Source: an uncultured delta proteobacterium
GTDB taxonomy: Bacteria > Desulfobacterota > Zymogenia > Zymogenales > Zymogenaceae
DNA length: 64,000 bases
Assembly (NCBI GenBank): GCA_963735595.1
Contig: CAVTLK010000001.1
Location: 227,008-291,007, forward strand
Reading direction: 5' to 3'
Below, in pieces: positions 27,700 through 63,162 of this stretch; positions within the stretch are counted from its first letter, which is position 1, and each line of letters opens with the position of its first letter. The notes beneath the pieces are model-generated. The model was not told where the DNA came from. It saw only the letters and a list, made by a program, of their open reading frames with translations, and searched no databases. Both the position numbers and the translations under genes were made by a program.

Positions 27700-27762
27700 A
27701 GACGGTACGGTTAGCAGTGTACGTAATCCTGTACGGGTGTATCAAACTTTGTGGAGTGTGCC

Positions 27763-28263: not shown

Positions 28264-28293
28264 GCGATAACGAACGGCCCATAAGGTGGTGTT

Positions 28294-28914
28294 ATGTCGG
28301 TAGAAAATATCGCAAAAAAGATAATTGACGAAGCCCAGAGCGCCGTCCGTGTGATTGAAGAAAAGGCCGGACGAGAGACGGCTCGGACCACGTCGGAACT
28401 TGACCGGCAGGAGCGGGAGCTCAAGGAGTCCGCAGGCCGTCAGATCGAGGCCGAGGCCCAGGAAGTCATTAAAAGGTGCGTATCGTCGGCCAGGCTTGAG
28501 GGCAGAAAGCGGATCCTCGGTGAAAAGGAGATGATCCTGGGCGAGATCTATGCGGAGGCTCGACAGCGAATCCTCGCACTTACGGAGGAAAAATACCTCG
28601 GGTTTCTCACAAAACTCGTCGTTACTCATAGCCTCGGTGGTCAGGAGAAGGTTAATTTATCCCGCAAGGACCTTGACCGGCTAAAGGGAAAGATACCACA
28701 GTGGGAAAAAGAGCTGGCCCGGGAAGTTCAAAAGAAGTATAAGGACAGCTCCATAACCGTATCCGCTGAAGCAAGGGACATCGAAGGAGGGCTCGTTCTC
28801 TCTCAAAGCAGGACTGAGATAAACCTTAGCCTCGATGTTATCCTTGCGGAAACGAAATACGCCCTCGAGTCGGAAGTGACCGGCGTCCTTTCCTGGACAA
28901 GCCGCAAGGGGTAA
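28294..28914 (+). CDS. atpE: V/A-type ATPase subunit E
   Basis: 206-aa coiled-coil N-terminus plus globular C-terminus, in subunit-E position and length. Confidence 0.75.
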   Translation: MSVENIAKKIIDEAQSAVRVIEEKAGRETARTTSELDRQERELKESAGRQIEAEAQEVIKRCVSSARLEGRKRILGEKEMILGEIYAEARQRILALTEEKYLGFLTKLVVTHSLGGQEKVNLSRKDLDRLKGKIPQWEKELAREVQKKYKDSSITVSAEARDIEGGLVLSQSRTEINLSLDVILAETKYALESEVTGVLSWTSRKG

Positions 28915-29097
28915 CGGGGCGCGGGAGTCTACCCCGAGGAAAACGGGACACATGCCGTCGCACGGCTTTCGAGTCCCGGTGGGTTCTCGTAAAACGAGAA
29001 GTATGGACGCCCGAGGGATTGATAAAGACTTTCGGTGATCCGGGGACACGAAACACGTATTCCCGGCGGCGTGCCGATAAGGCAGGAACATAAAACA

Positions 29098-30258
29098 ATG
29101 AGTGATATCGAATTTCCCATCAATATCGATCGGGAAATGGACCTCAGTAAAGAATTAGCGCGGAAATCGTTGGAAGGCATATCGAGCCTGAACTACGATG
29201 CGTTTGTTGTCTCGGAAGAATGGAAATGGGGAGACGACGAGCGATACGCATTTGCCACGGGGCACGTCCGCGCTATCGAACATCGGCTGATTCCCCCGGA
29301 CCGTTTTCTCCGTCTTGTTGACGCGAGGAACTCCGCTGAGGTCCTCGGTATGCTCGGCGATACCGACTATGGCAAGGGCTATCAGGACGAGATGGCGATG
29401 ATTTCCGGGCCCAGCGCCGATGGGGTCAATATCGAGCAGGTGCTGAAGCAGGAAGCGGAGCGGGTAAAGAAATTCATCAGCGAGCTGACTCAGGATCGGG
29501 AACAGACCGATATCCTTTTTTCTCGTTACGACTTCTTCAACCTGAAACTATCGCTCAAGGGCATCTTCGGTAATACCCCGGTGGAGGATTTCTTCCTGCC
29601 TCTCGGCACGTTACCTCCGGCACTGATCTACCAGGAAGGAAAAGAGGCCGAGAAATCGGAAGCGCTGCCTCCTCATCTAAAGGAAGCGGCAATTCAGGCC
29701 GCTAAGACGTATACCGATACGAGAAGTTCTATGGAGATAGACCGTGTCGTTGACGCCTCGATGTACCGATATATGCTGAGCCGGACGAGGGATAAGGAAC
29801 TGTTCTTCCTCTTCAGACTCATTACAACGGAAATCGACCTTACAAATATCATCACGTTTTTCCGCCTCAAGTGGGTTGGTGAGTCACTACCGACGCTTCA
29901 GTCCGCCTTGATCGAGGGAGGAAGGATTCCCTTTTCGTCATATTACGAGTATTTCCCCCGGGAAATCGATGATATAGAAACGGGCCTTTTGTCCGACGAG
30001 GTCTACCATGACTTCATCGCGGAGGGGGTGCACCATCTGAAGAACGAGAATTCCTTCATCAGGATGGAGTCGCTCATAGACCGGGAACTCATGAAGATCA
30101 TCAGCCGGGAAAAGGAGATCAACTTCGGGGTTGAGGTACTTATCGCCTATTTTTACAAGAAATCTATTGAGATGAAAAAACTCAGAACCGTTATTATCGG
30201 TAAGGAAAACGGGCTTTCACCTGACGAGATTAAGGCAAGGTTGGGTTATGTCGGATAG
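29098..30258 (+). CDS. atpC: V/A-type ATPase subunit C (archaeal-type C/d)
   Basis: ~387 aa, positioned between E and F. Start chosen at the ATG at 29098 with the upstream AGGAAC. Confidence 0.7.
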   Translation: MSDIEFPINIDREMDLSKELARKSLEGISSLNYDAFVVSEEWKWGDDERYAFATGHVRAIEHRLIPPDRFLRLVDARNSAEVLGMLGDTDYGKGYQDEMAMISGPSADGVNIEQVLKQEAERVKKFISELTQDREQTDILFSRYDFFNLKLSLKGIFGNTPVEDFFLPLGTLPPALIYQEGKEAEKSEALPPHLKEAAIQAAKTYTDTRSSMEIDRVVDASMYRYMLSRTRDKELFFLFRLITTEIDLTNIITFFRLKWVGESLPTLQSALIEGGRIPFSSYYEYFPREIDDIETGLLSDEVYHDFIAEGVHHLKNENSFIRMESLIDRELMKIISREKEINFGVEVLIAYFYKKSIEMKKLRTVIIGKENGLSPDEIKARLGYVG

Positions 30259-30583
30259 CAAGGTAATGGTCATCGGCGATAGGGACGCCGTGCTGGGTTT
30301 CGGAGCGCTCGGGGTAAAAGTCAGCACGCCTCCGGCTGAAGCGGAAAGGATTCGAGAGGCCATCAGGTCCGCCATTGACGAAGAAGTGGCGATTCTCTTC
30401 ATCACAGAGCGTCTGGCGGAGGAAGTCCCCGAAATGATCAAGGACCTTTCTCGGCGGCCGCTTCCGTCCGTCGTAGTGATACCGGATGCGTCCGGCAGCA
30501 AGGGTATGGGCCTCAAGAAGCTTAATGAAATCATCGTCAAGGCGGTCGGCTCGACGATCGGTGCTCAGGAAGAAACCAACTGA
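30248..30583 (+). CDS. atpF: V/A-type ATPase subunit F
   Basis: Reads MSDSKVMVIGDRDAVLGFGALGVKV, typical subunit F. Overlaps atpC by 11 nt. Confidence 0.8.
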   Translation: MSDSKVMVIGDRDAVLGFGALGVKVSTPPAEAERIREAIRSAIDEEVAILFITERLAEEVPEMIKDLSRRPLPSVVVIPDASGSKGMGLKKLNEIIVKAVGSTIGAQEETN

Positions 30584-30701
30584 CGGGCGGTAGGACGTGC
30601 CCGCCGGTCCGCTCTACAAGGAAAGATAAGCAGAACAAAATAGTATACACGCAGGTTAGAGATACTATAACAAAAGGGATATACGGAGAAACGGTGGATC
30701 T

Positions 30702-32486
30702 ATGAAACAGGGTGTCATTATCAAGGTTTCGGGACCCCTTGTGGTTGCCGATAATATGTCCGACTCCAAAATGTTTGACGTGGTGAAGGTGAGCGATGAG
30801 GGACTCATCGGCGAGATCATCGAGCTCCACGGCGACAAGGCCTTTATCCAGGTCTATGAAGAGACCGGGGGTATAGGCCCGGGCGATCCGGTCTACCCGA
30901 CTTATATGCCGCTCTCGGTGGAGCTTGGGCCGGGACTGGTTACGTCGATTTACGATGGAATCCAGAGACCGCTTTCCGTTATCAAGGATCAGGTCGGCGA
31001 TTATATAACCCGGGGAGTCGTGGCCGCGCCTCTCGACCACAACAAGGTCTGGGACTTCACGGCGACCGCCAAGGAAGGCGACGAAGTCGTGACGGGAGAC
31101 ATCCTGGGAGAAATCAAGGAGACGGTCGCCGTTGTTCACCGGATCATTGTGCCGCACGGCGTGAAGGGAAAGATAAAGAAGCTCAAATCGGGACAATATA
31201 AGATCGACGATACCGTCTGCGATGTTGAGACCAAGGACGGCATCAAGAATATCACGATGGTGCAGAAGTGGCCCGTCCGCGTTCCGCGTCCCTATAAACG
31301 AAAGCTCCGGCCCGAAAATCTCCTGATCACAGGACAGCGGGTCGTGGACGCATTCTTCCCGCTGGCGAAGGGTGGAACGGCGTGCGTTCCCGGCCCGTTC
31401 GGGAGCGGCAAGACCGTTATCCAGCACCAGCTGGCCAAGTGGGCGGATGCCGAGATCATCGTCTATATCGGGTGCGGTGAGCGAGGAAATGAGATGACGG
31501 ACGTTCTCCTGGAATTCCCGCACCTCAAAGACCCGAAATCGGGAGCGACGCTCATCAACCGAACCGTCCTTATCGCCAACACCTCAAACATGCCGGTTGC
31601 TGCGCGGGAGGCCTCGGTCTATACGGGGATCACGATCGCGGAGTATTTCCGCGATATGGGATACTCGGTGGCCGTCATGGCCGACTCGACGTCCCGGTGG
31701 GCGGAGGCGATGCGCGAGATATCGGGACGTCTTGAAGAGATGCCCGGTGAGGAAGGATATCCGGCGTACCTCGGCACCAGGATCGCGGAGTTCTACGAGC
31801 GCTCGGGGCGGGTATCGGTCCTCTGCTCGGGGAACCGTGAGGGCAACCTCTCGACAATCGGCGCCGTCTCACCTCCGGGCGGTGACCTTTCCGACCCGGT
31901 CGTTCAGGCGACGCTCAGGGTCGTCAAGGTGTTCTGGAGCCTCGAAGATAAGCTTGCGTTTCAGCGGCACTTCCCGGCCATTTCGTGGCTCAACAGCTAT
32001 TCGCTCTACCATGAGAATCTCGAAGCGAGCCTCAGGAAAGAGGTGGCCCATGATATCGTGGAAACACGGCAGGAAGCCATGAAGATACTCCAGGAAGAGG
32101 CTGAGCTGGCCGAAATCGTAAAACTGGTCGGCGTCGATTCCCTTTCCCCGGGCGACCGGATTACCCTGGAAACGGCGCGTTCGCTGCGTGAAGACTTCCT
32201 TCATCAAAACGCGTTCCATGAAGTGGATTCGTACTGCTCGTCAAAGAAGATGAACACCATGCTCAAGCTCATCCTGAAGCTTCATCACTTATCGCTTGAT
32301 GCGCTGCATGGAGGGGTTCCCTTTGAAGAGTTAGCCAAGATAAAGGTAAAAGAGGATATCGCGCGATCTAAGTATATCCCTGAAGACCAGGCTGCTCAGC
32401 TTGATAAGATCGAGAAGAACGCGGAGAGCGAGATTGAGGTCCTCAGAAATATGTACGGCCAAAAGGAAGTCGTACTGGGCTTTTAG
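30702..32486 (+). CDS. atpA: V/A-type ATPase catalytic subunit A
   Basis: Walker [10 protein letters not shown], plus the non-homologous insert region typical of A subunits. 594 aa. Confidence 0.95.
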
Positions 32487-32511
32487 ATAATTACAGGGGA
32501 GCTATCTTCAG

Positions 32512-33909
32512 ATGCAAAAGGAATATCTTACCATAAAAGATATATACGGCCCGCTGGTCATCGTCGAGGGTGTAGAGGGAGTGAAGTACGAGGAGCTGGT
32601 GACGGTGGAACTGAAAAACGGCGACAAACGGGCCGGTAAAGTCCTCGAGGTGGACGGCGACAAGGCAATGATCCAGCTGTTCGAGGGGACGACGGGCGTG
32701 GATATTTATACCTCCCGGGTCCGCTTCCTGGGCAGGGGAATCCAGATCGCCCTGTCGGAGGATATCCTCGGCCGGGTATTCGATGGGATGGCAAATCCGA
32801 TAGACGACGGACCCCAGATCATCGCCGAAAAGCGCATTGATATCAACGGCGACCCGATCAATCCGTACGCTCGCGACTATCCCGAGGAGTTCATACAGAC
32901 CGGGATCTCGTCAATCGACGGCCTCAATACGCTGGTCCGCGGTCAGAAGCTCCCGATATTTTCCGGGTCGGGCCTCCCGCACAACCGGCTTGCCGCTCAG
33001 ATCGCGCGACAGGCAAAGGTGCGCGGCTCGGGCGAGAGCTTCGCGGTGGTTTTTGCGGCCATGGGCATCACGTTTGAAGAGGCCAATTACTTCATCCTCG
33101 AATTCAACAAGACCGGCGCTATCGACCGATCGGTTCTCTTCCTCAACCTGGCCAACGACCCGGCCCTCGAGCGCGTGGCGACCCCGAGAATGGCGCTGAC
33201 CGCGGCCGAATACCTCGCCTTTGACAAGGGTATGCACGTGCTGGTTATACTTACGGATATGACCAACTACTGCGAGGCGCTGCGGGAGATATCGGCGGCC
33301 CGAAAGGAGATCCCGGGACGCCGCGGATACCCGGGCTACCTGTATACCGACCTTTCGACGATCTACGAACGGGCCGGCAAGATCCAGGGGAAAAGCGGAT
33401 CCATTACCCAGATCCCGATCCTGACCATGCCCGAGGATGACAAGACACACCCGATCCCGGACCTGACCGGTTACATTACGGAGGGACAGATTATCCTGTC
33501 CAGGGTCCTGTATCGCAAGAACGTTATGCCCCCCATCGACGTGCTGCCTTCGCTTTCCCGCCTCAAAGATAAAGGCATGGGCAAAGACAAGACCCGCGAG
33601 GACCACGCGGACGTCAACAACCAGCTGTTTGCGGCGTACGCCCGCGGAAAGGAAGCCCAGGAGCTTGCGGTCATCCTCGGTGAAGCGGCGCTCTCGGAAA
33701 TCGACAAGATGTTCTTTGATTTTGCAAATACCTTTGAGATGAGCTACGTCTCACAGGGTGAATATGACGATCGCAGCATCGAGGAGACCCTGGACCTTGG
33801 TTGGAAGCTCCTGTCGGTCTTTCCGACCGGCGAGCTCAAGCGTATCAGGGCCGAATACCTCAGCAAGTACCTGCCGAGATTCAAGAAGGAAGAAGCGGCA
33901 GCCGACTAA
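32512..33909 (+). CDS. atpB: V/A-type ATPase subunit B
   Basis: 465 aa, conserved B-subunit sequence ([16 protein letters not shown]...). SD AGGGGAG. Confidence 0.95.
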
Positions 33910-34032
33910 TCCCGATATACGGAAAGGGTTGCGTTACGGTGAATACAGGTAGCGCACGTAATTGCGCTATCAGGTAAGGACGGATTTTGAATTGCCCGAC
34001 TGTGGGACATAACAGGAAGACAGCGTAGCCAT

Positions 34033-36633: not shown

Positions 36634-36666
36634 TGAGATTGCGACCGACACGTGGAGAATACGAGT

Positions 36667-38706
36667 ATGGCGGGTGAAGGCAGGTTAAAAAAGATCCGAA
36701 ATATCGGGATCATATCCCATATTGATGCGGGGAAGACTACCGTCACCGAAAGGATACTCTACTATACCGGTGTTTCGTATAAGATCGGGGAAGTTCATGA
36801 CGGCCAGGCGATCATGGATTGGATGCCTCAGGAACAGGAGCGGGGGATTACCATTAGCAGCGCAACGACCACCTGCCAGTGGCTCGACCATGAGATTCAT
36901 ATTATCGATACTCCGGGACATGTCGATTTTACGATAGAGGTTGAACGGTCGCTCAGGGTCCTGGACGGGGCAATCGCTATATTCTCGGCAGTGGAGGGAG
37001 TGGAGCCCCAGTCGGAGACCGTTTGGCACCAGGCGGACCGGTATCGCGTTCCACGGATCGCATTTATCAACAAGATGGATCGCGTTGGCTCCAACCTCTT
37101 TGCCGTCCTTGATATGATCGTTGAAAAACTGGGAGTTAAGCCGCTTCTCATGCAGCTCCCGATCGGGACAGAGGCCGATTTCACGGGAATCGTGGATCTC
37201 ATTGGCATGAAGAGCTTTACGTTTTCTCAGGACGATCTCGGCGTAACGGTAAATACGGCCGATGTGACCGATCCTATAAGGGATGAAGCCCTACGAATGC
37301 GTGAAAGGATTATCGAAGCGGCGGCGGATATTGAAGACGGGCTGGCCGAGAAGTATCTCGAAGACGGAGATGTCTCGGCAGAGGAGATACGGGCAGCCCT
37401 GAGAAAGGGAGTAATCGGGGGTACGATCGTTCCCGTCTTTATCGGATCGGGACTTAAGAACAAAGGAATACAGCCGTTACTTGACGCCGTCGTAGATTAC
37501 CTCCCGTCACCGCTGGACGTACCGCCCGTGGAAGGAGTAAATCCCGAGACCGGCAACGTCGAGATCAGGCAGAGCAGCGACTCGGAGGCATCGGCGGCGC
37601 TCGCCTTTAAGGTCCAGATGGACGGCGGGAGGAAAGTCACCTACTTCCGAGTATACTCGGGCGTGCTCAAGGCAGGAGAGGAGGTCTATAACCCCCGGCT
37701 CAAACATCCCGAGAAGATCGCCCGGCTGCTGAAGATCCATGCCAACAGAAAAGAACGGATCGACGTGGCCAGGGCCGGTGATATCGCGGCGGCCATGGGA
37801 CTGAAGGATACCGCAACAGGTGATACTCTGTGCGATAAGGACAGACCGATCCTGCTTGAATCGATATCGTTTATGGACCCGGTCATCAGCATGGCCATTG
37901 AGCCCAAGACCGTCCTCGACCAGGAAAAGCTGGCCGATTCACTCGAAAAGCTCGTAGAAGAAGATCCGACACTGTCGGTATCGGTCAACGAAGATACGGG
38001 CCAGACGATCATATCAGGTATGGGAGAGCTTCACCTTGAAATCCTGATCGATCGACTCAAACGGGAGTTTAACGTATCTGCAAATGTCGGAAAACCGCAG
38101 GTGGTCTACCGCGAAACAATTATGGAGCCCTCGATGTCGGAAATTACCCTCGATCGCGAGATCGCGGGCCAGGCGCGGTATGCGAAGGTCTCGGTTCTCA
38201 TGGAGCCGCAGGAGCGGGGTAAGGGGGTGGATGTTAAGAGCCGAATCGAGCCGGATGTTTTCCCGTCGAAGCTTATTGAGGCCGCTCTTTCTGCTATGGA
38301 AGATGCGTCGCTATCAGGTCCGATCCTCGGCTATCCGCTCCACGACGTCAAGCTCAGGCTGCTCTCGGCGGAAAAACGAGACGGCGTCAGCGACGAGATG
38401 GCGTTTTCGATAGCCGCCGGCATGGCCGTAAAGGAGGCCGCGCGAAGCGGTCATCCCTTGCTCCTTGAGCCGATTATGGTTGTCGATATAGTTACGCCCG
38501 AGGAATTCATGGGAGAGATCATCGGTGACCTGAATGGGCGGGGCGGTCACTTGAGGGGAATAGATACTCGCGGTAAAATAAAGGACATCAAGGCCGACGT
38601 TCCACTATCAAGGATGTTCGGGTACTCCACGTCTCTGAGATCATTCAGCCAGGGTAGGGCAACCTTCAGCATGCACTTTTCGCGTTACGACAGCATGGAG
38701 GATTGA
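36667..38706 (+). CDS. Elongation factor G family GTPase, probably an EF-G2-type paralog given its position outside the str operon
   Basis: Reads [47 protein letters not shown]. Full five-domain length. Start chosen at the ATG at 36667 with SD GGAGAA; an alternative GTG lies at 36652. Confidence 0.85.
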
Positions 38707-47600: not shown

Positions 47601-48938
47601 TTGAAAGAGAGAAAGATCGCGGTTATCGGAATGGGATACGTCGGGATTCCCTGCGCGGCGCTTCTGGCCGATGTGCCGGGACATAACGTCATCGGGCTGG
47701 AGAAAGGATCAGACAGAAGTGCCTGGAAAATCGATACCCTCAATGCCGGCCTCTCGCCGATAGAGGGCGATGAACCGGGTTTGGCAGAGCTTCTGGGACG
47801 TGTCGTCGGGAAGGGATCGTTTCGCGCCACGGGAGACTACGCGGCGTTATCGGATCGTGACACGATCCTCATCTGTGTCCAAACGCCCACCGAGGGCGAT
47901 AATCATCGGCCCAGATACCTTGCGCTCAAAGATGCCGCAAAAGGAATCGGCGATAATTTGAAGACGGGGGCCCTTGTTATTACCGAGTCGACCCTTGCGC
48001 CCGGAACAACGGAGCACGTCATCAAACCGATCATCGAGCGTGCCTCCGGTCTCAAAGCGGGCAAAGATTTCTCCCTTGCGTATTCCTACGAGCGCCTGAT
48101 GCCGGGCCGCCTTATCCGTTATATCCAGGAGCTACCCCGCATCGTCGGGGGTATTGACACGGAAAGCGAACGCAGGGCGCGCGAGCTCTACGCTACGATA
48201 GTGAAGGCCCCCGTCCATACCACCGATGTCATGACGGCGGAGGCGACCAAGACCATCGAAAACGCCTACCGGGACGTGAACATAGCGTTTTCCAACGAAA
48301 TGGCACTCGTATGCGAGAGCCTCGGTATTAACGTATATGAGGTGCAACGGCTCATCAATACGCGATCCGAGCGGATGATGCACTATCCGGGAGCGGGCGT
48401 CGGCGGACACTGTCTTCCAAAGGATACGTGGCTTCTGCTCCATGGACTATCCATGTATGGTAAGCATGAAGTAAAGACCCACTTTGTTGAACTGGCACGC
48501 TCAATTAACGAATCGATGCCCGTTCACGTCTTTAGGCTCCTCGAGGATGCCTTAAGGCAAAAGGGAAGAGAATTCCCCGATGTCAAAGTAGCGCTTTTAG
48601 GCGTCGCGTATCTCGAGAACTCCGATGATACGAGGAACACCCCGGCATACGCTTTGATCGACCGGCTGGCCGCGTACGGGGCCGATATTATAGCGCACGA
48701 TCCGTACGTGACCATATTCCCGGAGGCGCGGCTGACCCATGATCTTGACGAGGCCATACGGGATGCCGATGCCCTCGTGATTATGACCAAGCATTCGCAG
48801 TACGATTCCATGAGCCTGGCAGATGCGGCAAAGGCCATGCGCACTCGCATAATCATCGACGGGAGAGACACGTTTGACCCTGATGATGCGCTGTCCGCGG
48901 GATTTTTCTATCGGGCTATAGGCAAAGGCACCGCCTAA
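47601..48938 (+). CDS. Nucleotide-sugar dehydrogenase (UDP-ManNAc / UDP-GlcNAc 6-dehydrogenase family, WecC/WbpA-like), paralog 1
   Basis: Reads IAVIGMGYVGIPCAALLA (N-terminal Rossmann), GGHCLPKD catalytic Cys motif, C-terminal UDP-binding domain. TTG start. Confidence 0.85.
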   Translation: MKERKIAVIGMGYVGIPCAALLADVPGHNVIGLEKGSDRSAWKIDTLNAGLSPIEGDEPGLAELLGRVVGKGSFRATGDYAALSDRDTILICVQTPTEGDNHRPRYLALKDAAKGIGDNLKTGALVITESTLAPGTTEHVIKPIIERASGLKAGKDFSLAYSYERLMPGRLIRYIQELPRIVGGIDTESERRARELYATIVKAPVHTTDVMTAEATKTIENAYRDVNIAFSNEMALVCESLGINVYEVQRLINTRSERMMHYPGAGVGGHCLPKDTWLLLHGLSMYGKHEVKTHFVELARSINESMPVHVFRLLEDALRQKGREFPDVKVALLGVAYLENSDDTRNTPAYALIDRLAAYGADIIAHDPYVTIFPEARLTHDLDEAIRDADALVIMTKHSQYDSMSLADAAKAMRTRIIIDGRDTFDPDDALSAGFFYRAIGKGTA

Positions 48939-48961
48939 TATAAAGAATACCGTTGTCTGCA

Positions 48962-48995
48962 AATGCACGATGTGATATGAAATGCATCGTGCATT
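48962..48995. repeat. Perfect 11-bp inverted repeat between the two dehydrogenase paralogs (AATGCACGATG-N12-CATCGTGCATT)
   Basis: Read directly. No clear T-run follows, so it is an operator or an attenuator hairpin. Confidence 0.6.
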
Positions 48996-49019
48996 ATTCA
49001 TTTTCAAGGGGCCGTAACC

Positions 49020-50354
49020 GTGAAGAAAAAGATTGCCGTTGTTGGAATGGGGTATGTGGGAATACCGTGTGCCGCGTTGCTGGCCGACGTCGAGGGGTTT
49101 GACGTTACCGGTATACAGCGGAGATCACAGCGAAGCGGGTGGAAGATCGATGCCCTCAACTCGGGAAAATCACCGATAGAAGGGGACGAGCCGGGACTCG
49201 ATGAGCTTCTGACGCGGGTGGTCGGAAAAGGGAGTTTCCGGGTTACCGACGATTTCTCTGTAATCAAACAAATGGACGTTGTCCTTATTGACGTACAAAC
49301 CCCTACGGACGGCGCGGGACATGAGCCCCAGTATCTTTCTTTGAAAGAGGTTGCCAGGGAGATCGGGACATACATGAAGCAGGGTGTACTTGTCATAACC
49401 GAATCGACCGTTGCCCCGGGAACCACCGAACACGTAATCTGCCCGATTCTCGAGAGAAAATCGGGATTGCAGGCGGGCAAAGACTTCTCCCTGGCATATT
49501 CCTATGAGCGGGTTATGCCGGGAAAACTGATAGAATATATCGTGAATTTGCCCCGGATCGTCGGCGGTATCGATCCACAAAGCGAGAACAGTGCGCGGGA
49601 ACTCTATGCCACGATAGTGAAAGCAAAGATCCACACCACCGACGTCCTGACGGCCGAGACAACCAAGACCATTGAAAACGCCTACCGGGACGTGAATATA
49701 GCGTTTTCCAACGAGATGGCCCTCGTATGCGAGAGCCTCGGAATAAACGTATACGAGGTTCAGCAGCTCATTAATACGCGATCCGAACGGATGATGCACT
49801 ATCCTGGCGCGGGGGTGGGCGGACACTGCCTTCCCAAGGATACGTGGCTTCTTCTCTACGGACTCAATACGTACGGCTCAAAGAAGGTCCAAACGCATTT
49901 TGTGGAGCTCGCCCGGAGTATCAATGAATCAATGCCGAATCATCTGGTAAATCTCCTCTCCGAATGCCTGAAATCGCGCGGAAAAAGTTTCCCCGACTCA
50001 AAGGTAGTAGTCTTGGGTGTTGCGTACCTGGAAAACTCGGATGACACGCGTAATACGCCTGCCTATGATGTGGTGGCGCGTCTAATGGCCCACGGAGCCG
50101 AAGTCATTGCACACGATCCGTACGTACGCGAATTCCCTCAGGTTGAGCTCACCAGGGACCTCATAGCGGCGGCCCAAGACGCCGATGCCCTCGTCATAGT
50201 TACAAAGCACAAGGAGTACTATACGATGGACTTGGGAGCCCTCAAAAAGGTAATGCGGGATCATATAATCATTGACGGCAGAGACGTGATAAATCGGGCG
50301 TCGGCGCGCGCGGCGGGGTTCCTTTATCGAGGTATCGGAAAGGGTGGCGAATAG
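49020..50354 (+). CDS. Nucleotide-sugar dehydrogenase, tandem paralog 2 (roughly 70% identical to paralog 1 by eye)
   Basis: Reads IAVVGMGYVGIPCAALLA...GGHCLPKD. GTG start. Confidence 0.85.
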   Translation: MKKKIAVVGMGYVGIPCAALLADVEGFDVTGIQRRSQRSGWKIDALNSGKSPIEGDEPGLDELLTRVVGKGSFRVTDDFSVIKQMDVVLIDVQTPTDGAGHEPQYLSLKEVAREIGTYMKQGVLVITESTVAPGTTEHVICPILERKSGLQAGKDFSLAYSYERVMPGKLIEYIVNLPRIVGGIDPQSENSARELYATIVKAKIHTTDVLTAETTKTIENAYRDVNIAFSNEMALVCESLGINVYEVQQLINTRSERMMHYPGAGVGGHCLPKDTWLLLYGLNTYGSKKVQTHFVELARSINESMPNHLVNLLSECLKSRGKSFPDSKVVVLGVAYLENSDDTRNTPAYDVVARLMAHGAEVIAHDPYVREFPQVELTRDLIAAAQDADALVIVTKHKEYYTMDLGALKKVMRDHIIIDGRDVINRASARAAGFLYRGIGKGGE

Positions 50355-56697: not shown

Positions 56698-57210
56698 ATG
56701 AAGAGACTGAGTTTTGTTGTGGCAATTATTTTCGTTCTCTCTTTATCGCTTTCGGTTTACGCTGCCGACGTAAAAGTGGGTGTCCTTGATCTTATGAAGG
56801 TTATCGACCTGTCCGCGCAGGGCAAGAAGGCTAAAGACGAGATGAACGTGAAGATCAAGGCCGCAGAGACCGAAGTGAAAAAGAAACAGGACGAAATACT
56901 CAGGATGAAGGCTGACATTGAGAAGCAGGCCCCTATGCTTTCGGCCTCGGCGCTTGCCGATAAGAAGAGGGCGTACGAAGACAAAGTCCTGGATTTCCAG
57001 CGGATGGTTCAGGATTATGAGTATGAATTACAGCAGAAGGACTTCGAGCTTGCGCAGGTAATCCTGACTCAAACGAAAGACATTATCGATAAGATCGGCA
57101 AGGAAGAAGGATATACCATTATCCTTGAGAGGACGAATTCGGCGGTTCTTTATTTCCCGGCAAGCGCCGATATAACCGATAAGGTTATCAAGGCACTCAA
57201 CGCGAAGTAG
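56698..57210 (+). CDS. skp: Periplasmic chaperone Skp (OmpH family)
   Basis: Signal peptide, then a long Lys/Glu-rich coiled-coil arm. 170 aa. Reads VGVLDLMKVID. Confidence 0.8.
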   Translation: MKRLSFVVAIIFVLSLSLSVYAADVKVGVLDLMKVIDLSAQGKKAKDEMNVKIKAAETEVKKKQDEILRMKADIEKQAPMLSASALADKKRAYEDKVLDFQRMVQDYEYELQQKDFELAQVILTQTKDIIDKIGKEEGYTIILERTNSAVLYFPASADITDKVIKALNAK

Positions 57211-57232
57211 TAGCTGTAGAAAAATTGATACG

Positions 57233-57263
57233 TAAAAAAACCCGCCTAGGCGGGTTTTTTTTT
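57233..57263. terminator. Bidirectional intrinsic terminator (14-bp perfect palindrome flanked by an A-run and a T-run)
   Basis: AAAAAAACCCGCCTAGGCGGGTTTTTTTTT. Confidence 0.8.
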
Positions 57264-57319
57264 GGCGTGAAATAGAGATTGCGGATACGTAATAGGAATG
57301 AAATCCTTCCCGGGAAGAC

Positions 57320-57730
57320 TTATTCACAGGTAAAAGGGTAGGGACTTGCGGTATCGGTTAAGTCGTTAAAGACGTTCCATGGTTCACGGCTGCAATCGGT
57401 CACAACCCAGACATCGTCTATGTTATCGTGATCAAGGTCTGCCGAGCAGCTGGCGGTGAAATGGAAAGCTGTCGCCGGAAATATTGAGGTACCAGTTCCT
57501 ATAATATTTCGGCTCAGAGGCAGGTCGAAACGCGATTTGTTCGTAATTCCGGCATATACGGAGTGTTCGGCGAAGTACGTACCTCACTTCCGTAGACGCC
57601 GGTAAGCAGGATTCGCGCCTCGGACTGTCTCGACTTATTCTGGAAGCTCATATAATTAGGAATAGCGATGGCGGCAAGGATCGCTATGATTGCCACAACG
57701 ATCATCAGCTCAATCAGGGTAAACCCGGAT
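57320..57730 (-). CDS. Type IV pilin / pseudopilin-like protein; has an internal frameshift (~57590) and no in-frame ATG before the leader
   Basis: Reads ...[46 protein letters not shown] (class III signal, G-1, E+5). After the frame change it reads ...[17 protein letters not shown]...[22 protein letters not shown]...FTCE*, a C-terminal disulfide loop. Confidence 0.5.
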
Positions 57731-58033
57731 ACGGAATTTTCGGAGTCTGGTTCGATAGGTATTATAGTGTCATAGGACTTATTAATAAAGCAAATAGTAT
57801 GCCATATGGTGCCGGAGGTCTTCCCTGTGGCGCGATCCTACAACATATTGCGATCATTATCTTTTTTATCTTCGGGACATGATATCCAGGATTGAAACTG
57901 ATAGCCGTATGGACGGACTGATATATGACAAAACTGTAACTATGCCTTTGCAATATCGCAATTATAATTGTATTGAACGTTGTGAGACAGACATTAAGGA
58001 GATAGTATAGGTAGTTAAAACATAAAAAAAGTC

Positions 58034-58063
58034 TTGACATACGATTCGCTATTACGATAGTAT
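58034..58063 (+). promoter_or_regulatory. Sigma-70-like promoter of the trp leader transcript
   Basis: TTGACA - 18 nt - TAGTAT. Confidence 0.45.
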
Positions 58064-58093
58064 TACGCTCAAAATGTAATCGTAAGGAATGTA

Positions 58094-58177
58094 ATGAAGC
58101 GGACACGTACGGTAATCGAAAAGAAAAATTGGGTGTGGCGTATCCACATAGGTGATTTGGTGCGCCCAATAGGTTGA
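58094..58177 (+). CDS. Trp-codon-containing leader peptide (27 aa, MKRTRTVIEKKNWVWRIHIGDLVRPIG), a transcription-attenuation leader for trpB2
   Basis: SD AAGGAA lies 5 nt upstream. Two Trp codons sit in a W-V-W cluster. The stop lies 6 nt before the first terminator hairpin. Confidence 0.5.
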   Translation: MKRTRTVIEKKNWVWRIHIGDLVRPIG

Positions 58178-58183
58178 GTAATA

Positions 58184-58258
58184 GGCCGTGGGCGGCCAAA
58201 GTCGCCCACGGCTTTTTTGTTTTTACAGCAGGCCGTGAATAGCTCACGGCCTTTTTTT
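58184..58258 (+). terminator. Two tandem rho-independent terminators (attenuator) between the leader peptide and trpB2
   Basis: GGCCGTGGGCGgccaaagtCGCCCACGGCTTTTTTGTTTTT, then GGCCGTGAatagcTCACGGCCTTTTTTT. The upstream segment GCGCCCA (58162-58168) can alternatively pair with TGGGCG of the terminator 5' arm (antiterminator), and ATTGGG (58128-58133) can pair with CCCAAT (58165-58170). Confidence 0.6.
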
Positions 58259-58364
58259 ATCGAAAAGGGGGTGATTGCCGCATGAGGCACCGGTGGAATT
58301 GAAGGAATATGAGAAGTCATAATTTATAGACATAGGTAGCGAAACAACCAAAACGGAGAAGAAA

Positions 58365-59729
58365 ATGACTGACAAGATAATCACCCTGTCCAGGAGCGAA
58401 ATGCCGACGAAATGGTACAATATCGTCCCTGACTTCCCGGTCCCGATGAAACCGGTCCTCAGCCCGCAAACCCTGCAGCCTGCAACTCCCGACGATTTTG
58501 CGCCGATCTTTCCGATGTCGATTATCGAACAGGAAATGAGCGACCAATCCTATATCACGATTCCCGATGAAGTCATGGAAGCTTATTCCCTTTATCGGCC
58601 GACGCCGCTGGTGCGCGCCACCAGGCTCGAGAAACTACTCGATACGCCGGCCCATATATATTTCAAAAACGAGAGTGTGTCTCCTGCGGGATCTCATAAA
58701 CCTAATACGGCCATCCCCCAGGCGTTTTACAACAAGAAGGCCGGGATGAAGCGGATGGCTACGGAGACGGGCGCCGGACAGTGGGGCAGCGCCCTTTCAT
58801 TTGCCGGGTCCCTCTTCGGGATTGATGTAACGGTATATATGGTGAGGATATCGTTCGATCAGAAACCGTACCGTAAATCGATGATGCAAACCTGGGGAGG
58901 CACCGTATATTCCAGCCCGAGCGATAAAACGGAGGTGGGACGAGCGATCCTGAAGGATAATCCAAACACTAACGGGACGCTTGGAATGGCCATCTCGGAG
59001 GCGGTTTTTGATGCAGCGACACATCCCGATACCAATTATTCCATCGGCAGTGTCCTGAACCACGTCTGCATGCACCAGACCATCGTGGGGCAGGAAGCCA
59101 TGCTCCAGATGAAAAAGGCCGGTGAATACCCGGACGTTATTATTGGGTGTGTCGGCGGCGGGAGCAATTTTGCGGGAATTTCCTATCCCTTCTTACGGGA
59201 GAAAATCAAGGGCAACAAGAATCCCGAGGTTATCGCGGTAGAACCGTTTTCGTGTCCTACCCTCACAAAGGGTGTCTATGCGTACGATTTCGGTGATACG
59301 GCGATGGTAGCGCCGGTTGCGTATATGCACACGCTTGGGCATACGTTTGAGCCCCCCGGAATACACGCGGGTGGATTACGATACCACGGGATGGCCCCCA
59401 CGATATGCCTCCTCTATGATCAGAAGCTCATGAATGCGGTGGCGGTACATCAGAACGCCTGTTTTGAGGCGGCCATGATGTTCGCGCGAACCGAAGGGAT
59501 CATCCCGGCGCCGGAGTCATCGCATGCGATCAGGGTAGCGATCGATGAGGCGCTCAAGGCGAAGAAAGATAAAAAGGAGAAGGTCATCCTATTCAACCTG
59601 TCAGGACACGGGCATTTTGACATGGTGGCGTACGATAAATACTTCGCCGGACAATTGGAGGATTACGAGTACCCCTCCGAAAAGATTAAAGAGGCCCTCT
59701 CACATCTCCCGAAAGTCAAGGTTATGTAA
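58365..59729 (+). CDS. trpB: TrpB2-type tryptophan synthase beta-chain-like PLP enzyme
   Basis: 454 aa. Reads ...[16 protein letters not shown] (PLP Lys motif)...[11 protein letters not shown]...PESSHA, with the TrpB2 N-terminal extension. SD GGAG. Confidence 0.8.
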
Positions 59730-59748: not shown

Positions 59749-59790
59749 AACGAGAGACCGCGGGCGCGTCCTGCGGTCTCTCGTTTTTTC
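59749..59790 (+). terminator. Rho-independent terminator after trpB2
   Basis: AACGAGAGACCGCgggcgcgtcctGCGGTCTCTCGTTTTTT. Confidence 0.75.
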
Positions 59791-60128
59791 GTATCTCGAT
59801 AGCACATCTTTGAGGAAATGACGGGTACGAGTATCGGTGCCGTTTTTATGATGTATCAATCGAATCGGGAGAATATGGTCTACGCCGCCATACTAACGAA
59901 GAATCGGCCCTTGCCGGATTGTTCGGAATCGGGTCTTGCTGCCCGGATCGGGGATTACTGATAGATAAAAAAGGCGGTATGCCCATATAAGACACATGAA
60001 ATAAGTTTACGAATATATTTTGTTGCTTTTATTACGCGGTTCTATATGGTAATATTATAAGAATGTGTGCACAAGTGTAAGATTTGGCGTATTGTCCGCA
60101 CGGGGTTGTTTCGGTGGAAGAGTCGTTC

Positions 60129-61679
60129 ATGTCATCGTTGGAAACTAAGATCCTCCATGAGTTTTACGAGATCTCGGGCTCAAAGGGAAACTCGATCGAG
60201 GTTCTCAACAAGATGTTTGATATGCTGATTTCCGGGATCGGCGCGAGCAGCGGTCGGGTTTCGGTATTCGACGAAGTAACCGGAGAAGAAACGGAAATCG
60301 TGATGTTGGGTGTACGTATGTCGCTCGAGAATCCCGACCTGCAGGGCAAGGCTCTACTCAAACGATTCCAAAATAATAAATCGCGATTGATTGTCGAGAC
60401 GATAAATGACGGCCACGGCCAGGCGGCATTTGCGCCGTTGCTGATTTCCGGTAAGCTGATCGGGATTATCCTGGCCGAAAGAGAGAAAGATGCGGCCCCT
60501 TTTACGAGAAACGAGCTAACGACGATAGAACATGTCGCGGTGCTTGCCGTACTCCTGGTTGACAATATCAGGCTCGAGAGAATACGTAATCGGAGTCTGG
60601 CCGAGATATCAGAGTTGATGGAGATCTCGGCCATTCTCAATTCGTCGCTCGACACAACTTCCATTCGCGAGAAAGCGATAACGGCGATTACGAGGCTGCT
60701 CGAATGTGAAGTGGCGTCTTTGCTTCTCGTCGATGACGTAACCGGTGAGCTTTATTTCGAAGTGGCGCTCGGTGAAAAAGGTAACCGGGTTAAAGAGATT
60801 CGGCTGAAGCAGGGCGAAGGAATTGCGGGCTGGGTTGCTACCCATAACCAGCCGGTTCTCATAGACGATGTAAAGAGCGACCTTCGCCATTCACGGCGAT
60901 TTGATGACCGGTCAAAATTCGAGACGCGCAGCATGATCTGTGTGCCGATGATTATAAAGGCCAGAGTTGCCGGTGTATTACAGGCCATCAACAAGCTTGG
61001 TGCGTCGGGATTCTCTCAGACGGATCTCGACCTGCTTATCTCCCTTTCTCATGAAGTTGCAATTGCGGTAGACAACGCGCGCCTCTACAATGAGCTCAGG
61101 GAAACGTTTTATCAGACTGCCGAAGCTCTCGCGGATGCCATAGAAAAGCGCGATCCATATACGGGTAACCATACGAGACGCGTCATGCACTACTCTATGG
61201 CGATATCCCGATTTATGAATCTCACTGAGACCGAAATGGAAAACCTGAGACTTGCCGCTATCCTCCATGACATCGGTAAAATAGGGGTGGAGGACTCCGT
61301 TCTTCGAAAGGACACTGATCTTGATAGCGATGAATACCAAAAAATAGTCCGTCACCCTGACATCGGCGTAGATATACTCGGCCATATCAAATCGCTGGAA
61401 GGCGTAATACCGGGTATCAAGTCACACCATGAGCGTATCGATGGAAAGGGCTATCCTGATATGATCATGGACGGAGATATACCGCTCATTGCCAAGATAA
61501 TCGCCGTGGCCGATACTTTTGACGCAATGACAACCGACCGTCCGTATCGATCGGCGCTATCCGAAAAGGAAGCGGTGGAGGAGCTTCAGCGATTCGCGGG
61601 AACCCAGTTTGACCTTGACGTGGTTAACGCGCTCGTTAAATCGTACGAAAACGGATACATCGCCAAGAATGTTGACTAA
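60129..61679 (+). CDS. GAF-domain sensor fused to an HD-GYP phosphohydrolase (likely c-di-GMP phosphodiesterase)
   Basis: Two GAF-like regions, then HD...HDIGKIGV...HHERIDGKGYPD (the HD-GYP signature). Confidence 0.75.
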   Translation: MSSLETKILHEFYEISGSKGNSIEVLNKMFDMLISGIGASSGRVSVFDEVTGEETEIVMLGVRMSLENPDLQGKALLKRFQNNKSRLIVETINDGHGQAAFAPLLISGKLIGIILAEREKDAAPFTRNELTTIEHVAVLAVLLVDNIRLERIRNRSLAEISELMEISAILNSSLDTTSIREKAITAITRLLECEVASLLLVDDVTGELYFEVALGEKGNRVKEIRLKQGEGIAGWVATHNQPVLIDDVKSDLRHSRRFDDRSKFETRSMICVPMIIKARVAGVLQAINKLGASGFSQTDLDLLISLSHEVAIAVDNARLYNELRETFYQTAEALADAIEKRDPYTGNHTRRVMHYSMAISRFMNLTETEMENLRLAAILHDIGKIGVEDSVLRKDTDLDSDEYQKIVRHPDIGVDILGHIKSLEGVIPGIKSHHERIDGKGYPDMIMDGDIPLIAKIIAVADTFDAMTTDRPYRSALSEKEAVEELQRFAGTQFDLDVVNALVKSYENGYIAKNVD

Positions 61680-61735
61680 CGGCGATATATCATATATAGT
61701 AAATTAACTGACCGGGTAACGGTGCGGAGGAATTT

Positions 61736-62392
61736 ATGGTGGCCCAGGATATCCTGTTGCAGAAATTCGGCCGTGATTTCGAGAAAGGTACGATACTCTT
61801 TCACGAGGGTGATACCCGAAGCAAAGAGATGTACGTCATCCATAAGGGTAAGGTAAAGATATATAAGAAGGTCGGCAACCAGGAGACCGTACTGGCATAT
61901 CTGGGCCAGGGAGAGTTCTTTGGTGAAATGGCGATCCTTAATAATAAACCACGATCGGCGACGGCCGAGGTTGTCGAAAATGGAACCCTTTTGGTGATCG
62001 ATCCCAAGACGTTTGAGACAATGATAAAGAATAACGCAGGGGTAGCCTTCAGGATGATCAAGAAGCTGGCCGACCGTATTGAGGAGACCGACAATACGAT
62101 TGAACGCCTGATGATAAAGGATACCAACAGCCGTGTCGTGCATGCACTTGAGAGCCTGGGAGAGTCTATCGGCGTTCGAAACGATGGCGAGCTCGTCGTT
62201 CCGCTTTCACAAGAGGAATTCCTATCCAGGGCGGGCGTCAGCTACGATCACGCCTCCGATATACTTGAGAAGTTGAAAAAAGCGAAGATTATTACGGTAT
62301 CGGCCGATGCCATCTGTATCCACGACATAGGCAAACTGAGGAAATTCGTCCAGTTCCTGATTCTCAAGGAACAATTTGGTGATTTGGATTAG
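61736..62392 (+). CDS. Crp/Fnr-family transcription regulator (cNMP-binding domain plus C-terminal HTH)
   Basis: Reads FFGEMAILNNKPRSATA (cNMP-binding loop). C-terminal helix-turn-helix. SD GGAGG. Confidence 0.8.
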   Translation: MVAQDILLQKFGRDFEKGTILFHEGDTRSKEMYVIHKGKVKIYKKVGNQETVLAYLGQGEFFGEMAILNNKPRSATAEVVENGTLLVIDPKTFETMIKNNAGVAFRMIKKLADRIEETDNTIERLMIKDTNSRVVHALESLGESIGVRNDGELVVPLSQEEFLSRAGVSYDHASDILEKLKKAKIITVSADAICIHDIGKLRKFVQFLILKEQFGDLD

Positions 62393-62397
62393 CACGT

Positions 62398-63162
62398 ATG
62401 GAAATCCGAGTATTAGGATGTAACGGTGGTATCCTCCCCGGTTTCCGATCTTCAAGTTTCCTGATCAATGAGCGGATACTCATCGATTCGGGAAACGTCG
62501 CGGATATTCTCACGCTCGAGGAACAAAACAGGATCAGGGATATCTTCGTTACCCATTTCCACCTCGATCACACGAAAGACATTGCCTTCCTGACGGATAA
62601 TGCTTTTGGGGATCATAATCTTCCCATCACCGTATACGGTACAGAACAAACCGTTTCTGATTTTAAGAAACACTATTTCAATAACGCGACCTGGCCCGAT
62701 TTCACCAAGATCAATTCGGATGACCAACCGATCGTAAGGCTTGTCGCCATTAAAACAAAAGAGAAAACGGTGGCGGGTGGTATGGAAGTAACGCCTTTTA
62801 TCGTCAACCACTCCATAGACGGGGTGGGCTATACCGTCCGAGACGGATCCACCGTTATCGTTTTTTCCGGGGACACCGGACCCACTGACGACTTATGGGA
62901 TATAGTTAACGCCGATATGAACGTCAAGGCGGTCTTTGTGGAGACCTCGTTTCCAAATGAGCTCCAGGCGATAGCGGATGCGTCCGGTCATTTTACTCCG
63001 CAGACACTTGATGCTGACCTGAGGAAACTCACTAAGAGCACCATTCCGATATATCTCTATCATCTCAAACCGAGGTACCACGATACTATCGTCAAAGAGA
63101 TCGAGGCGCTCAAACGGGACAATCTCATTATACTGCGAAATGATCTCCGCCTAACTTTCTGA
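62398..63162 (+). CDS. MBL-fold hydrolase of the class-II 3',5'-cyclic-nucleotide phosphodiesterase-like family
   Basis: Reads VTHFHLDH (HxHxDH). 254 aa, the expected length for cAMP phosphodiesterase class II (PF02112-like). Confidence 0.6.
   Translation: MEIRVLGCNGGILPGFRSSSFLINERILIDSGNVADILTLEEQNRIRDIFVTHFHLDHTKDIAFLTDNAFGDHNLPITVYGTEQTVSDFKKHYFNNATWPDFTKINSDDQPIVRLVAIKTKEKTVAGGMEVTPFIVNHSIDGVGYTVRDGSTVIVFSGDTGPTDDLWDIVNADMNVKAVFVETSFPNELQAIADASGHFTPQTLDADLRKLTKSTIPIYLYHLKPRYHDTIVKEIEALKRDNLIILRNDLRLTF

Follow-up and report, generated by a model that had tools for sequence, protein, structure and literature searches.

In Escherichia coli, the trpL leader (Rfam family RF00513) has a promoter-proximal short open reading frame (ORF) with neighbouring Trp codons inside RNA segment 1, allows the mutually exclusive pairings 1:2, 2:3 and 3:4, and ends in an intrinsic terminator before the structural genes. 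All of these elements recur at the locus described here, which lies in a 64,000-nucleotide (nt) stretch of DNA from an uncultured delta proteobacterium (contig CAVTLK010000001.1, positions 227,008 to 291,007; this whole stretch is called the window, and positions are counted from its first letter). The element occupies positions 58034-58364 of the + strand, upstream of a stand-alone trpB2 gene. We consider it very probable that it is a ribosome-mediated leader-peptide attenuator, which ties the expression of trpB2 to the supply of charged tRNA-Trp. The core mechanism is the textbook one. The conserved additions are a pair of cross-complementary terminators and a second small ORF with a Trp codon, below called the mini-ORF.

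The E. coli leader has 14 codons with two adjacent Trp codons (WW), whereas the leader in the window has 27 codons and a W-x-W arrangement. The stop codon lies between segments 1 and 2 in trpL, but after segment 2 here. E. coli trpL regulates trpEDCBA, in contrast to the single stand-alone trpB2 of the window, and it does not have the second terminator and the second Trp ORF. Unlike trpL, the element shows neither a sequence nor a structure match to RF00513 (no match to this Trp_leader family in 58034-58364, either at the gathering score of 41 or at E <= 10). Another known leader of this kind is the Bacteroid-trp motif (RF01692), listed by Weinberg et al. 2010 (PMC2864571), which also combines a Trp-codon leader and a terminator before tryptophan genes beyond the classical model phyla. 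The Bacteroidales version has three consecutive Trp codons (WWW), one terminator and no mini-ORF, and the leader in the window is not matched by RF01692 (no match in 57200-58450 at E <= 10; gathering score 49). More generally, Rfam searches at the gathering score (whole window) and at E <= 10 (57200-58450) returned only sub-threshold terminator look-alikes. The element belongs to a leader family outside Rfam with a known mechanism.

Read from 58034 to 58364, the locus consists of a promoter, the 27-codon leader ORF, a 1:2 hairpin, terminator 1 (T1), terminator 2 (T2), a 6-codon ORF, and then the TrpB2-type gene. The promoter is of the sigma-70 type (58034-58063), with a -35 box TTGACA at 58034-58039, an 18-nt spacer and a -10 box TAGTAT at 58058-58063. 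It scores 10 of 12 in a consensus scan, has a run of A residues just 5' of it, and is the only promoter-like site of the + strand that the scan gave between the upstream gene and trpB2, with zero additional sites in the interval between T2 and trpB2. The leader ORF (58094-58177) is preceded by the Shine-Dalgarno sequence (SD) AAGGA at 58084-58088, starts with ATG at 58094, stops with TGA at 58175-58177, and encodes the peptide MKRTRTVIEKKNWVWRIHIGDLVRPIG, with UGG as codons 13 (58130-58132) and 15 (58136-58138). An earlier note on this DNA had called the promoter, the SD, the 27-codon leader and the two terminators, and each of them lies where that note had put it.

The leader RNA can pair in alternative ways. 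The two UGG codons lie within segment 1 (AUUGGGUGUG), and segment 2 (UGCGCCCAAU) comprises the Arg-Pro codons; paired with each other, the segments form a hairpin of 43 nt (58128-58170) that is present in both the minimum free energy (MFE) fold and the centroid fold (-17.3 kcal/mol) and is a probable pause or "protector" hairpin. Alternatively, the stretch 58151-58168 (GGUGAUUUGGUGCGCCCA) pairs with 58189-58206 (UGGGCGGCCAAAGUCGCC) to give the antiterminator 2:3, an 18-nt complementarity (inverted repeat I1) whose second arm spans the upper part of T1, from its 5' arm through the loop into its 3' arm. Both pairings proposed in the earlier note are real, ATTGGG/CCCAAT as the base of the 43-nt hairpin and GCGCCCA/TGGGCG as the core of 2:3. 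T1 (3:4, 58183-58224) begins 5 nt past the leader stop and consists of a stem at 58183-58214 with 14 pairs, 10 of them G-C, a CAAA loop and a T-run at 58213-58224. T2 (5:6, 58230-58258) has a stem of 9 pairs, 6 of them G-C, at 58230-58252, an AUAGC loop and seven T residues at 58252-58258. The terminator scan that gave these stems found 13 terminator-like sites in the region, compared to 4.0 +/- 2.1 expected, and the 199-nt leader folds with z = -4.4, with 0 of 200 shuffles folding as well. The layout exceeds chance, and the main support for it is that the whole arrangement is kept in eight other loci.

These loci come from two sources. A scan of one genome per species gave L022, L001 and L002 (TrpB2 identity of 97%, 91% and 88%), which are metagenome-assembled genomes (MAGs) labelled "uncultured delta proteobacterium". 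L165 (91%) and L081-L084 (77%) came from look-ups of the exact protein; L166 and L167 were left out because of too little upstream DNA. A metagenome scan with a TrpB2 alignment gave, among the matches listed, only relatives of <=65% identity. The same architecture is found 5' of trpB2 in all eight readable relatives (L022, L001, L165, L002, L081, L082, L083 and L084), and so the recurrence in related genomes that the earlier note had looked to is there for the Trp leader, the terminators and the alternative pairings alike. The promoter motif AAAAAAGTCTTGACA and a -10 box TAtAnT at a distance of 17-18 nt are kept in L022, L001, L002, L081, L082 and L084. L081 is also syntenic with the window (FecR, CARDB, OmpH, pilin, trpB2, GAF-HD, cNMP-binding, PDEase_II).

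Each of the nine loci has an orthologous leader ORF that encodes W-x-W; L083 has three Trp codons (WIWVW) and L084 has four (WVWQW..W). The N-terminal half of the peptide varies freely, and the C-terminal half is shared as W-[VA]-W-R-x-[HY]-I-G-x-L-[VL]-R-P. In this conserved half, Leu is always encoded by UUG and Ile always by AUA (nine-locus alignment A3), a frozen codon choice which indicates that the RNA, and not the peptide, is constrained. The pairings themselves account for some of the residues. UGGGyG of segment 1, the Trp-Val/Ala codons, pairs with CGyCCA of segment 2, and it is because of this pairing that the latter reads Arg-Pro. A second partner of CGyCCA is UGGrCG of segment 3, in the 5' arm of T1, and segment 3 itself pairs with CGyyCA of segment 4, in the 3' arm. 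UGGGyG, CGyCCA and UGGrCG co-vary among the nine loci. The geometry is conserved as well, with both UGG codons inside 58128-58140 and the core of segment 2 ending 0-15 nt 5' of the stop codon in 9 of 9 loci.

Standard base pairs were counted over the cells of alignment A3. For 2:3, 92.5% of the cells are paired, compared to 40-53% in slid controls, and in three pairs both partners change, among them a C-G pair that has become U-A in L081 and L082, a switch that both arms of T1 mirror. For 1:2, T1 and T2 taken jointly, the figures are 90.5% versus 30-53%, with 11 pairs changing on both sides. T1 individually has 94.4% of cells paired and four compensatory pairs, T2 98.8% and three, with a loop that varies freely, and the lower stem of 1:2 is kept in all nine loci with G-C/G-U/U-A changes. 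As the nine sequences are related, shuffle controls overstate significance, and the slid controls together with the compensatory changes are the stronger evidence. Covariation, energies and conserved geometry all support the 1:2 / 2:3 / 3:4 attenuation logic that had been suggested from the window.

Two side observations concern the leader. The heptamer ACAUAGG (58146-58152), which includes the rare Ile codon AUA, is invariant in the nine leaders; the 2:3 helix explains only its GG, and it may be an RNA polymerase pause or other signal. In L084, three tandem repeats of about 18 nt (GGATGAGAAGGGAGT..., positions 600-720) are inserted between promoter and leader ORF; the insertion gives rise to a further small ORF, MDEKGMAEKGVDEKGVDETGWLWWES, which adds three Trp codons.

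Elements, conservation, covariation and energies are observed, and the timing, stalling and termination in the model that follows are drawn by analogy from E. coli trpL. Transcription would begin near 58070, as the position of the promoter suggests, and a ribosome would translate the 27-codon leader. When Trp-tRNA is plentiful, it would reach the stop codon at 58175-58177 and cover the CGCCCA core of segment 2. Segment 3 would then be free to pair with segment 4, T1 would form, and most transcripts would end near 58220; those that escape T1 would be ended by T2 near 58258. When Trp-tRNA is scarce, the ribosome would stall on UGG 58130-58132 or 58136-58138 and occupy segment 1, leaving segment 2 (58151-58168) free. 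Segment 2 would pair with the emerging stretch 58189-58206 to form the 2:3 antiterminator, which would prevent T1. The freed 3' arm of T1 might then pair with the 5' arm of T2 (4:5), a single sensing event disarming both terminators, which we regard as nearly an even call that tips slightly to the doubtful side. RNA polymerase would proceed into trpB2.

The folding energies are compatible with such a choice. Taken alone, the helices of the window have energies of -17.3 (1:2), -27.5 (2:3), -27.5 (T1), -14.1 (4:5) and -15.5 kcal/mol (T2), and the isolated-helix values are similar in the other eight loci. The earlier note had seen the stability of the antiterminator as a point on which its proposal might fail; in fact, 2:3 is as stable as T1 alone, and so not much weaker than its competitors. 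When a ribosome footprint is placed on the second Trp codon (Trp15) of a growing transcript, 2:3 is the MFE structure up to an end at 58210, and T1 is ahead by only 3.4 kcal/mol at ends 58212-58222. With the footprint masked, 2:3 is the MFE structure in 8 of 9 loci once the T1 loop has been made.

Some of our data weigh against an attenuator. In equilibrium folds of the complete leader, T1 plus T2 is always preferred, also when the stalled ribosome is masked (-56.0 versus -51.9 and -48.9 kcal/mol). A working switch would thus have to be kinetic, as in E. coli trpL, where the equilibrium likewise favours the terminator. In L001 and L002, the leader SD is either weak or at an unusual distance, and most members have only two regulatory Trp codons, with one codon between them. 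The comparison comprises nine sequences, perhaps five or six independent lineages, and all compared loci are uncultured MAGs or contigs.

The distribution of similar leaders extends far beyond the nine loci. We scanned 148 trpB2 upstream regions from many phyla under strict terms, which asked for an ORF of 8-45 codons that starts with ATG, contains two Trp at a distance of <=2 residues and precedes a GC-rich hairpin with a T-run; 19 of them qualified, compared to 0 of the 148 reverse complements. The same scan with Cys, Met, His, Tyr or Gln gave 0-2 of 148. The notion that an attenuator before a stand-alone trpB2 would be peculiar to this kind of genome has to be abandoned, since the arrangement recurs in Bacteroidales, Desulfovibrionaceae and other lineages. 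In Bacteroidales, the trpB2 leaders read NNWWW and have one terminator before a monocistronic trpB2. A covariance model of the nine loci (R1) also finds L039 (52 bits, E 8e-13), and it gave no second copy elsewhere with a comparable score. Relatives at 67-68% TrpB2 identity (L169, L170, L171) have WLWWW, FWW and WCWWW leaders and a single terminator CCGUGGG...CCCrCGG; the core of leader and T1 therefore predates the clade in which T2 and the mini-ORF were added.

As a separate observation, a Bacteroid-trp-like leader precedes trpB2 in L062 (3801-3928), with an RF01692 score of 45.6 bits (gathering score 49) and a trpB2 that is monocistronic according to the flanking ORFs, which were checked. 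Further Bacteroidales loci with a Bacteroid-trp-like leader before trpB2 are L050, L056, L060, L061, L068, L069, L071 and L074. The RF01692 scores of trpB2 leaders below the gathering score mean that several real members lie under the Rfam threshold. The literature that we searched describes neither an attenuator before a stand-alone TrpB2-type gene nor a twin-terminator leader-peptide attenuator, which, given the limited collection, is weak evidence in both cases. Rodionov et al. 2004 was considered as a source for delta-proteobacterial trp attenuators and rejected, as tryptophan is mentioned nowhere in that paper.

The attenuator differs from the textbook version in its second half, and here a simpler account competes with ours. 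T1 and T2 have the same lower stem (AGGCCGUG...CACGGCCU) in every genome, and L083 shows a joint change of the four arms to the CCGCG type. Because the lower stem is shared, the 3' arm of T1 (CACGGCUU, 58207-58214) can pair with the 5' arm of T2 (AGGCCGUG, 58230-58237), which is the 4:5 pairing proposed above (58207-58237). This pairing would block T2 whenever 2:3 frees segment 4. It is almost as stable as T2 (-14.1 versus -15.5 kcal/mol), and under stalling the combination of 2:3 and 4:5 is the MFE structure at ends 58238-58244 in the window, and also in L001 and L002 at that stage. Several findings speak against such a relay. At the relevant stage, 2:3 plus 4:5 is not the MFE structure in the other six loci, leaving three of nine positive. 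The 4:5 helix is paired in 98.6% of cells in the nine loci, but with a single compensatory pair, and its complementarity follows automatically from the similarity of the two stems. An origin of T2 by duplication would give the same complementarity without selection, and this is why we rate a functional 4:5 relay that disarms both terminators from one sensing event a little short of an even chance.

The simpler account takes the locus as a classical attenuator in which T2 is a redundant back-up and the mini-ORF a neutral by-product, with neither a relay nor a second sensor. It is a live alternative, although we lean against it. That T1 plus T2 is the equilibrium fold fits it well, as do the single compensatory pair in 4:5 and the three of nine loci with the combined MFE structure, and the relatives at 67-68% identity and the Bacteroidales leaders manage with one terminator and no mini-ORF. 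However, a T2 that could not be switched would cap induction at the efficiency of T2, and the identity of the lower stems of T1 and T2 in every genome, together with their joint change in L083, also counts against a plain spare. T1 lacks a T-run in L084 (CTTTAGAG) and has a weak one in L165 (TTCATG), whereas the T-run of T2 is intact in 9 of 9 loci. In L084, and less clearly in L165, regulated termination must therefore act at T2.

Moreover, the twin design recurs. Two terminators with matching stems also follow the Trp leaders of trpB2 in L039 (Bacteroidota MAG, leader at 3770-3960 with CTWRWWWN), L077 (Desulfovibrionaceae MAG, 3791-3970, FWWWQW) and L139 (metagenome contig, 2276-2460, QQWWWRW), none of which has a mini-ORF; in L077, the stem sequence is unrelated (GCUACGAG). 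With explicitly chosen arms, the 4:5 energies are -15.6 (L077), -14.9 (L039) and -9.7 kcal/mol (L139), and 0 of 500, 0 of 500 and 19 of 500 shuffles, respectively, match them. On balance, T2 is probably more than a plain spare.

The simpler account also has to accommodate the mini-ORF, whose conservation is considerable (58263-58302, + strand). It consists of an extended SD, AAAAGGGGGUGAU (58263-58275), and an ORF at 58282-58302 that encodes MRHRWN, with the Trp codon at 58294-58296. The earlier note had dismissed MRHRWN as probably coincidental. This does not hold, since the SD, the ATG and the TGG at codon 5 are present in 9 of 9 loci, in the form GGrGGTGA-N2-GCC-N2-ATG-N9-TGG. The SD (GGrGGUGAU) is an almost perfect complement of the 16S tail, and a small hairpin GCC/GGC at 58277-58288 (GCC(C)/GGGC in the family) holds the AUG. 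The AUG is followed by three codons and the UGG, with the stop 1-7 codons further on and a total length of 6-12 codons. The predicted peptides are MRHRWN, MRRRWN, MRRLWI, MRRRWKWE, MRRRWI, MGRVWC, MRRLWS, MGFRWEYAG and MGYKWKNGLMTT. Codon 3 encodes Arg in 7 of 9 loci, and since all four CGN codons are used there, the frame looks translated. Judging by these sequence features, the mini-ORF is probably translated, and a second Trp-tRNA-dependent layer of control, acting after the termination step, is its probable contribution.

Two negative results speak against a role of the mini-ORF, and both are points for the simpler account as well. In the nine loci, no conserved structure sequesters the SD of trpB2 or links the mini-ORF to the trpB2 ribosome-binding site, and the mini-ORF is absent from the other trpB2 leader families that were compared (L039, L077, L139, Bacteroidales and L169-L171). 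The 41-77 nt between the end of the mini-ORF and the start of trpB2 are unconserved and A/U-rich in the nine loci. Several candidates for a coupling were considered and dropped. Translational attenuation by the mini-ORF was rejected because the trpB2 SD has no conserved sequestering structure. A pairing of GGGUGAUU with AAUCACCC (inverted repeat I11 of the window) is not kept in L001. A 6:7 pairing between the 3' arm and U-run of T2 and the SD of the mini-ORF (-9 to -12 kcal/mol) was not adopted either, as 3-10% of shuffles equal it and it is weak in distant members. There is a slim chance of a Rho-dependent step after the mini-ORF; to the eye, the spacer is A/U-rich and C-poor and would make a poor rut site.

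The nearest precedents are two known systems, although neither mechanism can be carried over as it stands. In the anti-TRAP operon of Bacillus subtilis, transcription and translation are both induced by uncharged tRNA-Trp (PMC4027176). This operon (rtpA/yczA) resembles the proposed arrangement of the window in that one leader carries two serial sensors of tRNA-Trp charging: the first acts on termination, and the second is a very short Trp-codon ORF before the structural gene. Its first sensor is a T-box, whereas a leader peptide takes this place here. The ORF rtpLP reportedly has three Trp codons (Chen & Yanofsky 2003/2004), compared to one in our mini-ORF, and a ribosome terminating on it is said to block the next SD sterically. 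Because the mini-ORF ends 41-77 nt before the trpB2 start, this steric mechanism is not directly applicable. The mgtCBR leader of Salmonella has tandem attenuators with two short ORFs, mgtM and mgtP (PMC3641672), and resembles the window in having two serial short ORFs in one leader RNA, where RNA structures further 3' read out their translation. The mgtCBR ORFs sense ATP and Pro-tRNA, whereas both ORFs carry Trp codons here, and, unlike in mgtCBR, no stem-loop under the control of the second ORF was identified in our leader.

Taken to its full extent, the relay reading gives a Trp sensor with three stages, namely the choice in the leader, a relay through six segments (2:3, then 4:5), and a re-check of Trp-tRNA by the mini-ORF. 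We put this forward tentatively and find it rather doubtful as a whole. In such a sensor, T1 of L084 and perhaps L165 may be a pure relay hairpin without a T-run, and the mini-ORF may act on trpB2 translation, mRNA stability or polarity. As the twin-terminator design recurs in L077, L039 and L139, it may be an overlooked general solution. If true, the relay would give a very low leak without a lower induced level.

The remaining alternatives question the attenuator itself. One could regard the unit as an independent small gene, for a micro-protein or a trans-acting terminated small RNA, with trpB2 being transcribed from elsewhere. A promoter and strong terminators of its own fit such a gene, as does the high conservation of the C-terminal half of the peptide and of the T1 loop. 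There is also precedent, since in Sinorhizobium the released trp attenuator RNA (rnTrpL) and the leader peptide (peTrpL) are reported to act in trans (PMC6614838, PMC7298713). The trpL of S. meliloti resembles the window in being a Trp attenuator before a single gene of a split trp pathway, and a stable, conserved short terminated RNA would be released in both cases. The S. meliloti leader has no sequence relation to the window, however, and a trans function here is pure conjecture. The stretch between T2 and trpB2 has no promoter-like site from which trpB2 could be transcribed separately, and the unit is linked to trpB2 in 9 of 9 loci despite differing upstream neighbours. RNA pairing explains the conserved residues, namely UGG with CCA, the invariant UUG and AUA, and the T1 loop with segment 2. 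A trans role would moreover add to attenuation rather than replace it. We therefore hold a small gene in place of an attenuator to be very unlikely.

That a trans factor controls termination (a TRAP-like protein, a T-box or a riboswitch), the small ORF being incidental, is a highly improbable reading. Trp genes of Gram-positive bacteria are regulated in these ways, and terminators alone do not name the sensor. However, the Rfam models of T-boxes and riboswitches gave no match, either at the gathering score in the whole window or at E <= 10 in 57200-58450 (the T-box model being RF00230), and no array of (G/U)AG repeats was seen when the window leader was read by eye. The pattern of conservation, in which the ORF, its frame and its Trp codons are kept but the N-terminal codons vary, is that of a translated sensor, and clustered Trp codons are specifically enriched 5' of trpB2.

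The tna leader peptide TnaC also is a short peptide with a critical Trp, for which the position of the ribosome decides on transcription; it senses free Trp, acts via Rho and induces a catabolic enzyme, and its key residues are W12, D16 and P24. A TnaC-like arrest peptide, through which an excess of Trp would arrest the ribosome and thereby induce the gene, is scarcely credible here: the series W13/W15...D21...P25-x-x-stop does loosely resemble TnaC, but the gene is of a biosynthetic or salvage type and not catabolic, termination is intrinsic (hairpin plus T-run) and not Rho-dependent, the W-x3-D-x7-P pattern before the stop is not found (the Asp position is D, G or A, with Gly or Ala in place of Asp21 in four members, and the distance from Pro to stop is 0-5 codons), and, unlike in TnaC, RNA pairing explains which positions of the peptide are conserved, with the Arg-Pro codons accounted for by the UGG and the frozen synonymous codons pointing to the RNA.

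The regulated gene has the SD GGAG at 58355-58358 and an ORF of 454 codons for amino acids at 58365-59729 (+ strand; 58355-59729 with the SD) with the Pfam domain PALP. Its TrpB2-class scores are 722.8 bits for NF009057 (cut-off 366) and 630.4 for TIGR01415 (cut-off 518.85), whereas the canonical trpB model TIGR00263 gives 164.9 and stays below its cut-off of 392.45. By these scores, the product is a stand-alone TrpB2-type tryptophan synthase beta-like pyridoxal phosphate enzyme. No other trp gene is found among the annotated larger ORFs of the window, and it is for this reason that we call trpB2 stand-alone. An intrinsic terminator directly 3' of the gene (59749-59785, + strand; terminator scan), with a stem of 16 pairs and a T-run, makes trpB2 monocistronic, and the next gene (GAF-HD, 60084) starts about 300 nt beyond it. 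The genes at 60084-63162, which also accompany trpB2 in L081, encode a GAF-HD(-GYP-like) protein, a Crp-family cNMP-binding regulator, and a class-II cAMP phosphodiesterase/metallo-beta-lactamase-fold protein.

On the other side, the leader elements sit between the TrpB2 gene and a frameshifted pilin-like gene on the minus strand. This type-IV-pilin-like gene (57332-57744; PF07963 N_methyl) is a homologue of L081 4887-5315 and is split into two frames, with a break near 57578. It is either a frameshifted pseudogene or an assembly error, and its split is the reason why a gap of 800 nt 5' of the leader looks empty. Some 75-120 nt 5' of the leader promoter lies an imperfect dyad, TTTGCAATATCGCAA (TTTGC-N6-GCAAA, 57947-57961), which is kept in L022, L001 (as a mirror variant), L002, L081 and L082 and is probably a transcription-factor site in the divergent intergenic region between pilin and trpB2. 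Terminator-like hairpins on both strands (57205-57335) directly follow an OmpH/Skp-like gene and probably form a bidirectional terminator that is shared with the pilin-like gene. They draw weak Rfam matches to several leader and small RNA models, including Trp_leader with 22.5 bits, which is the sole RF00513 match nearby (terminator at 57200-57263). Two minus-strand ORFs that overlap the leader (57762-58247 and 58069-58320) were rejected as genes, because no gene is called at the matching stretch of L081 and L082, L084 has only a + strand ORF of 49 residues there without Pfam matches, and the conservation pattern is that of RNA helices and one + strand ORF. Elsewhere, the window contains a V/A-type ATPase operon (25705-34000; subunits I, C/AC39, A and B; the NCBI label of the genome is "delta proteobacterium"), an EF-G paralogue (36652-38706), and two adjoining UDP-glucose/GDP-mannose dehydrogenase paralogues (47601-50354).

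Stand-alone TrpB2 proteins are widespread, and their role is debated, with indole salvage and alternative serine or phosphoserine substrates under discussion. The position of trpB2 behind a sensor of Trp-tRNA charging in several lineages, including the present one, Bacteroidales, Desulfovibrionaceae and others, is direct genomic evidence that TrpB2 is made when tryptophan is limiting, and induction under such conditions fits a role in tryptophan supply. The presence of such leaders in uncultured "deltaproteobacterial" MAGs shows that leader-peptide attenuation extends well past the model phyla. If they are functional, the twin terminators and the Trp mini-ORF would amount to relay or multi-checkpoint attenuation, which would be relevant to the dynamic range of such leaders and to synthetic switches.

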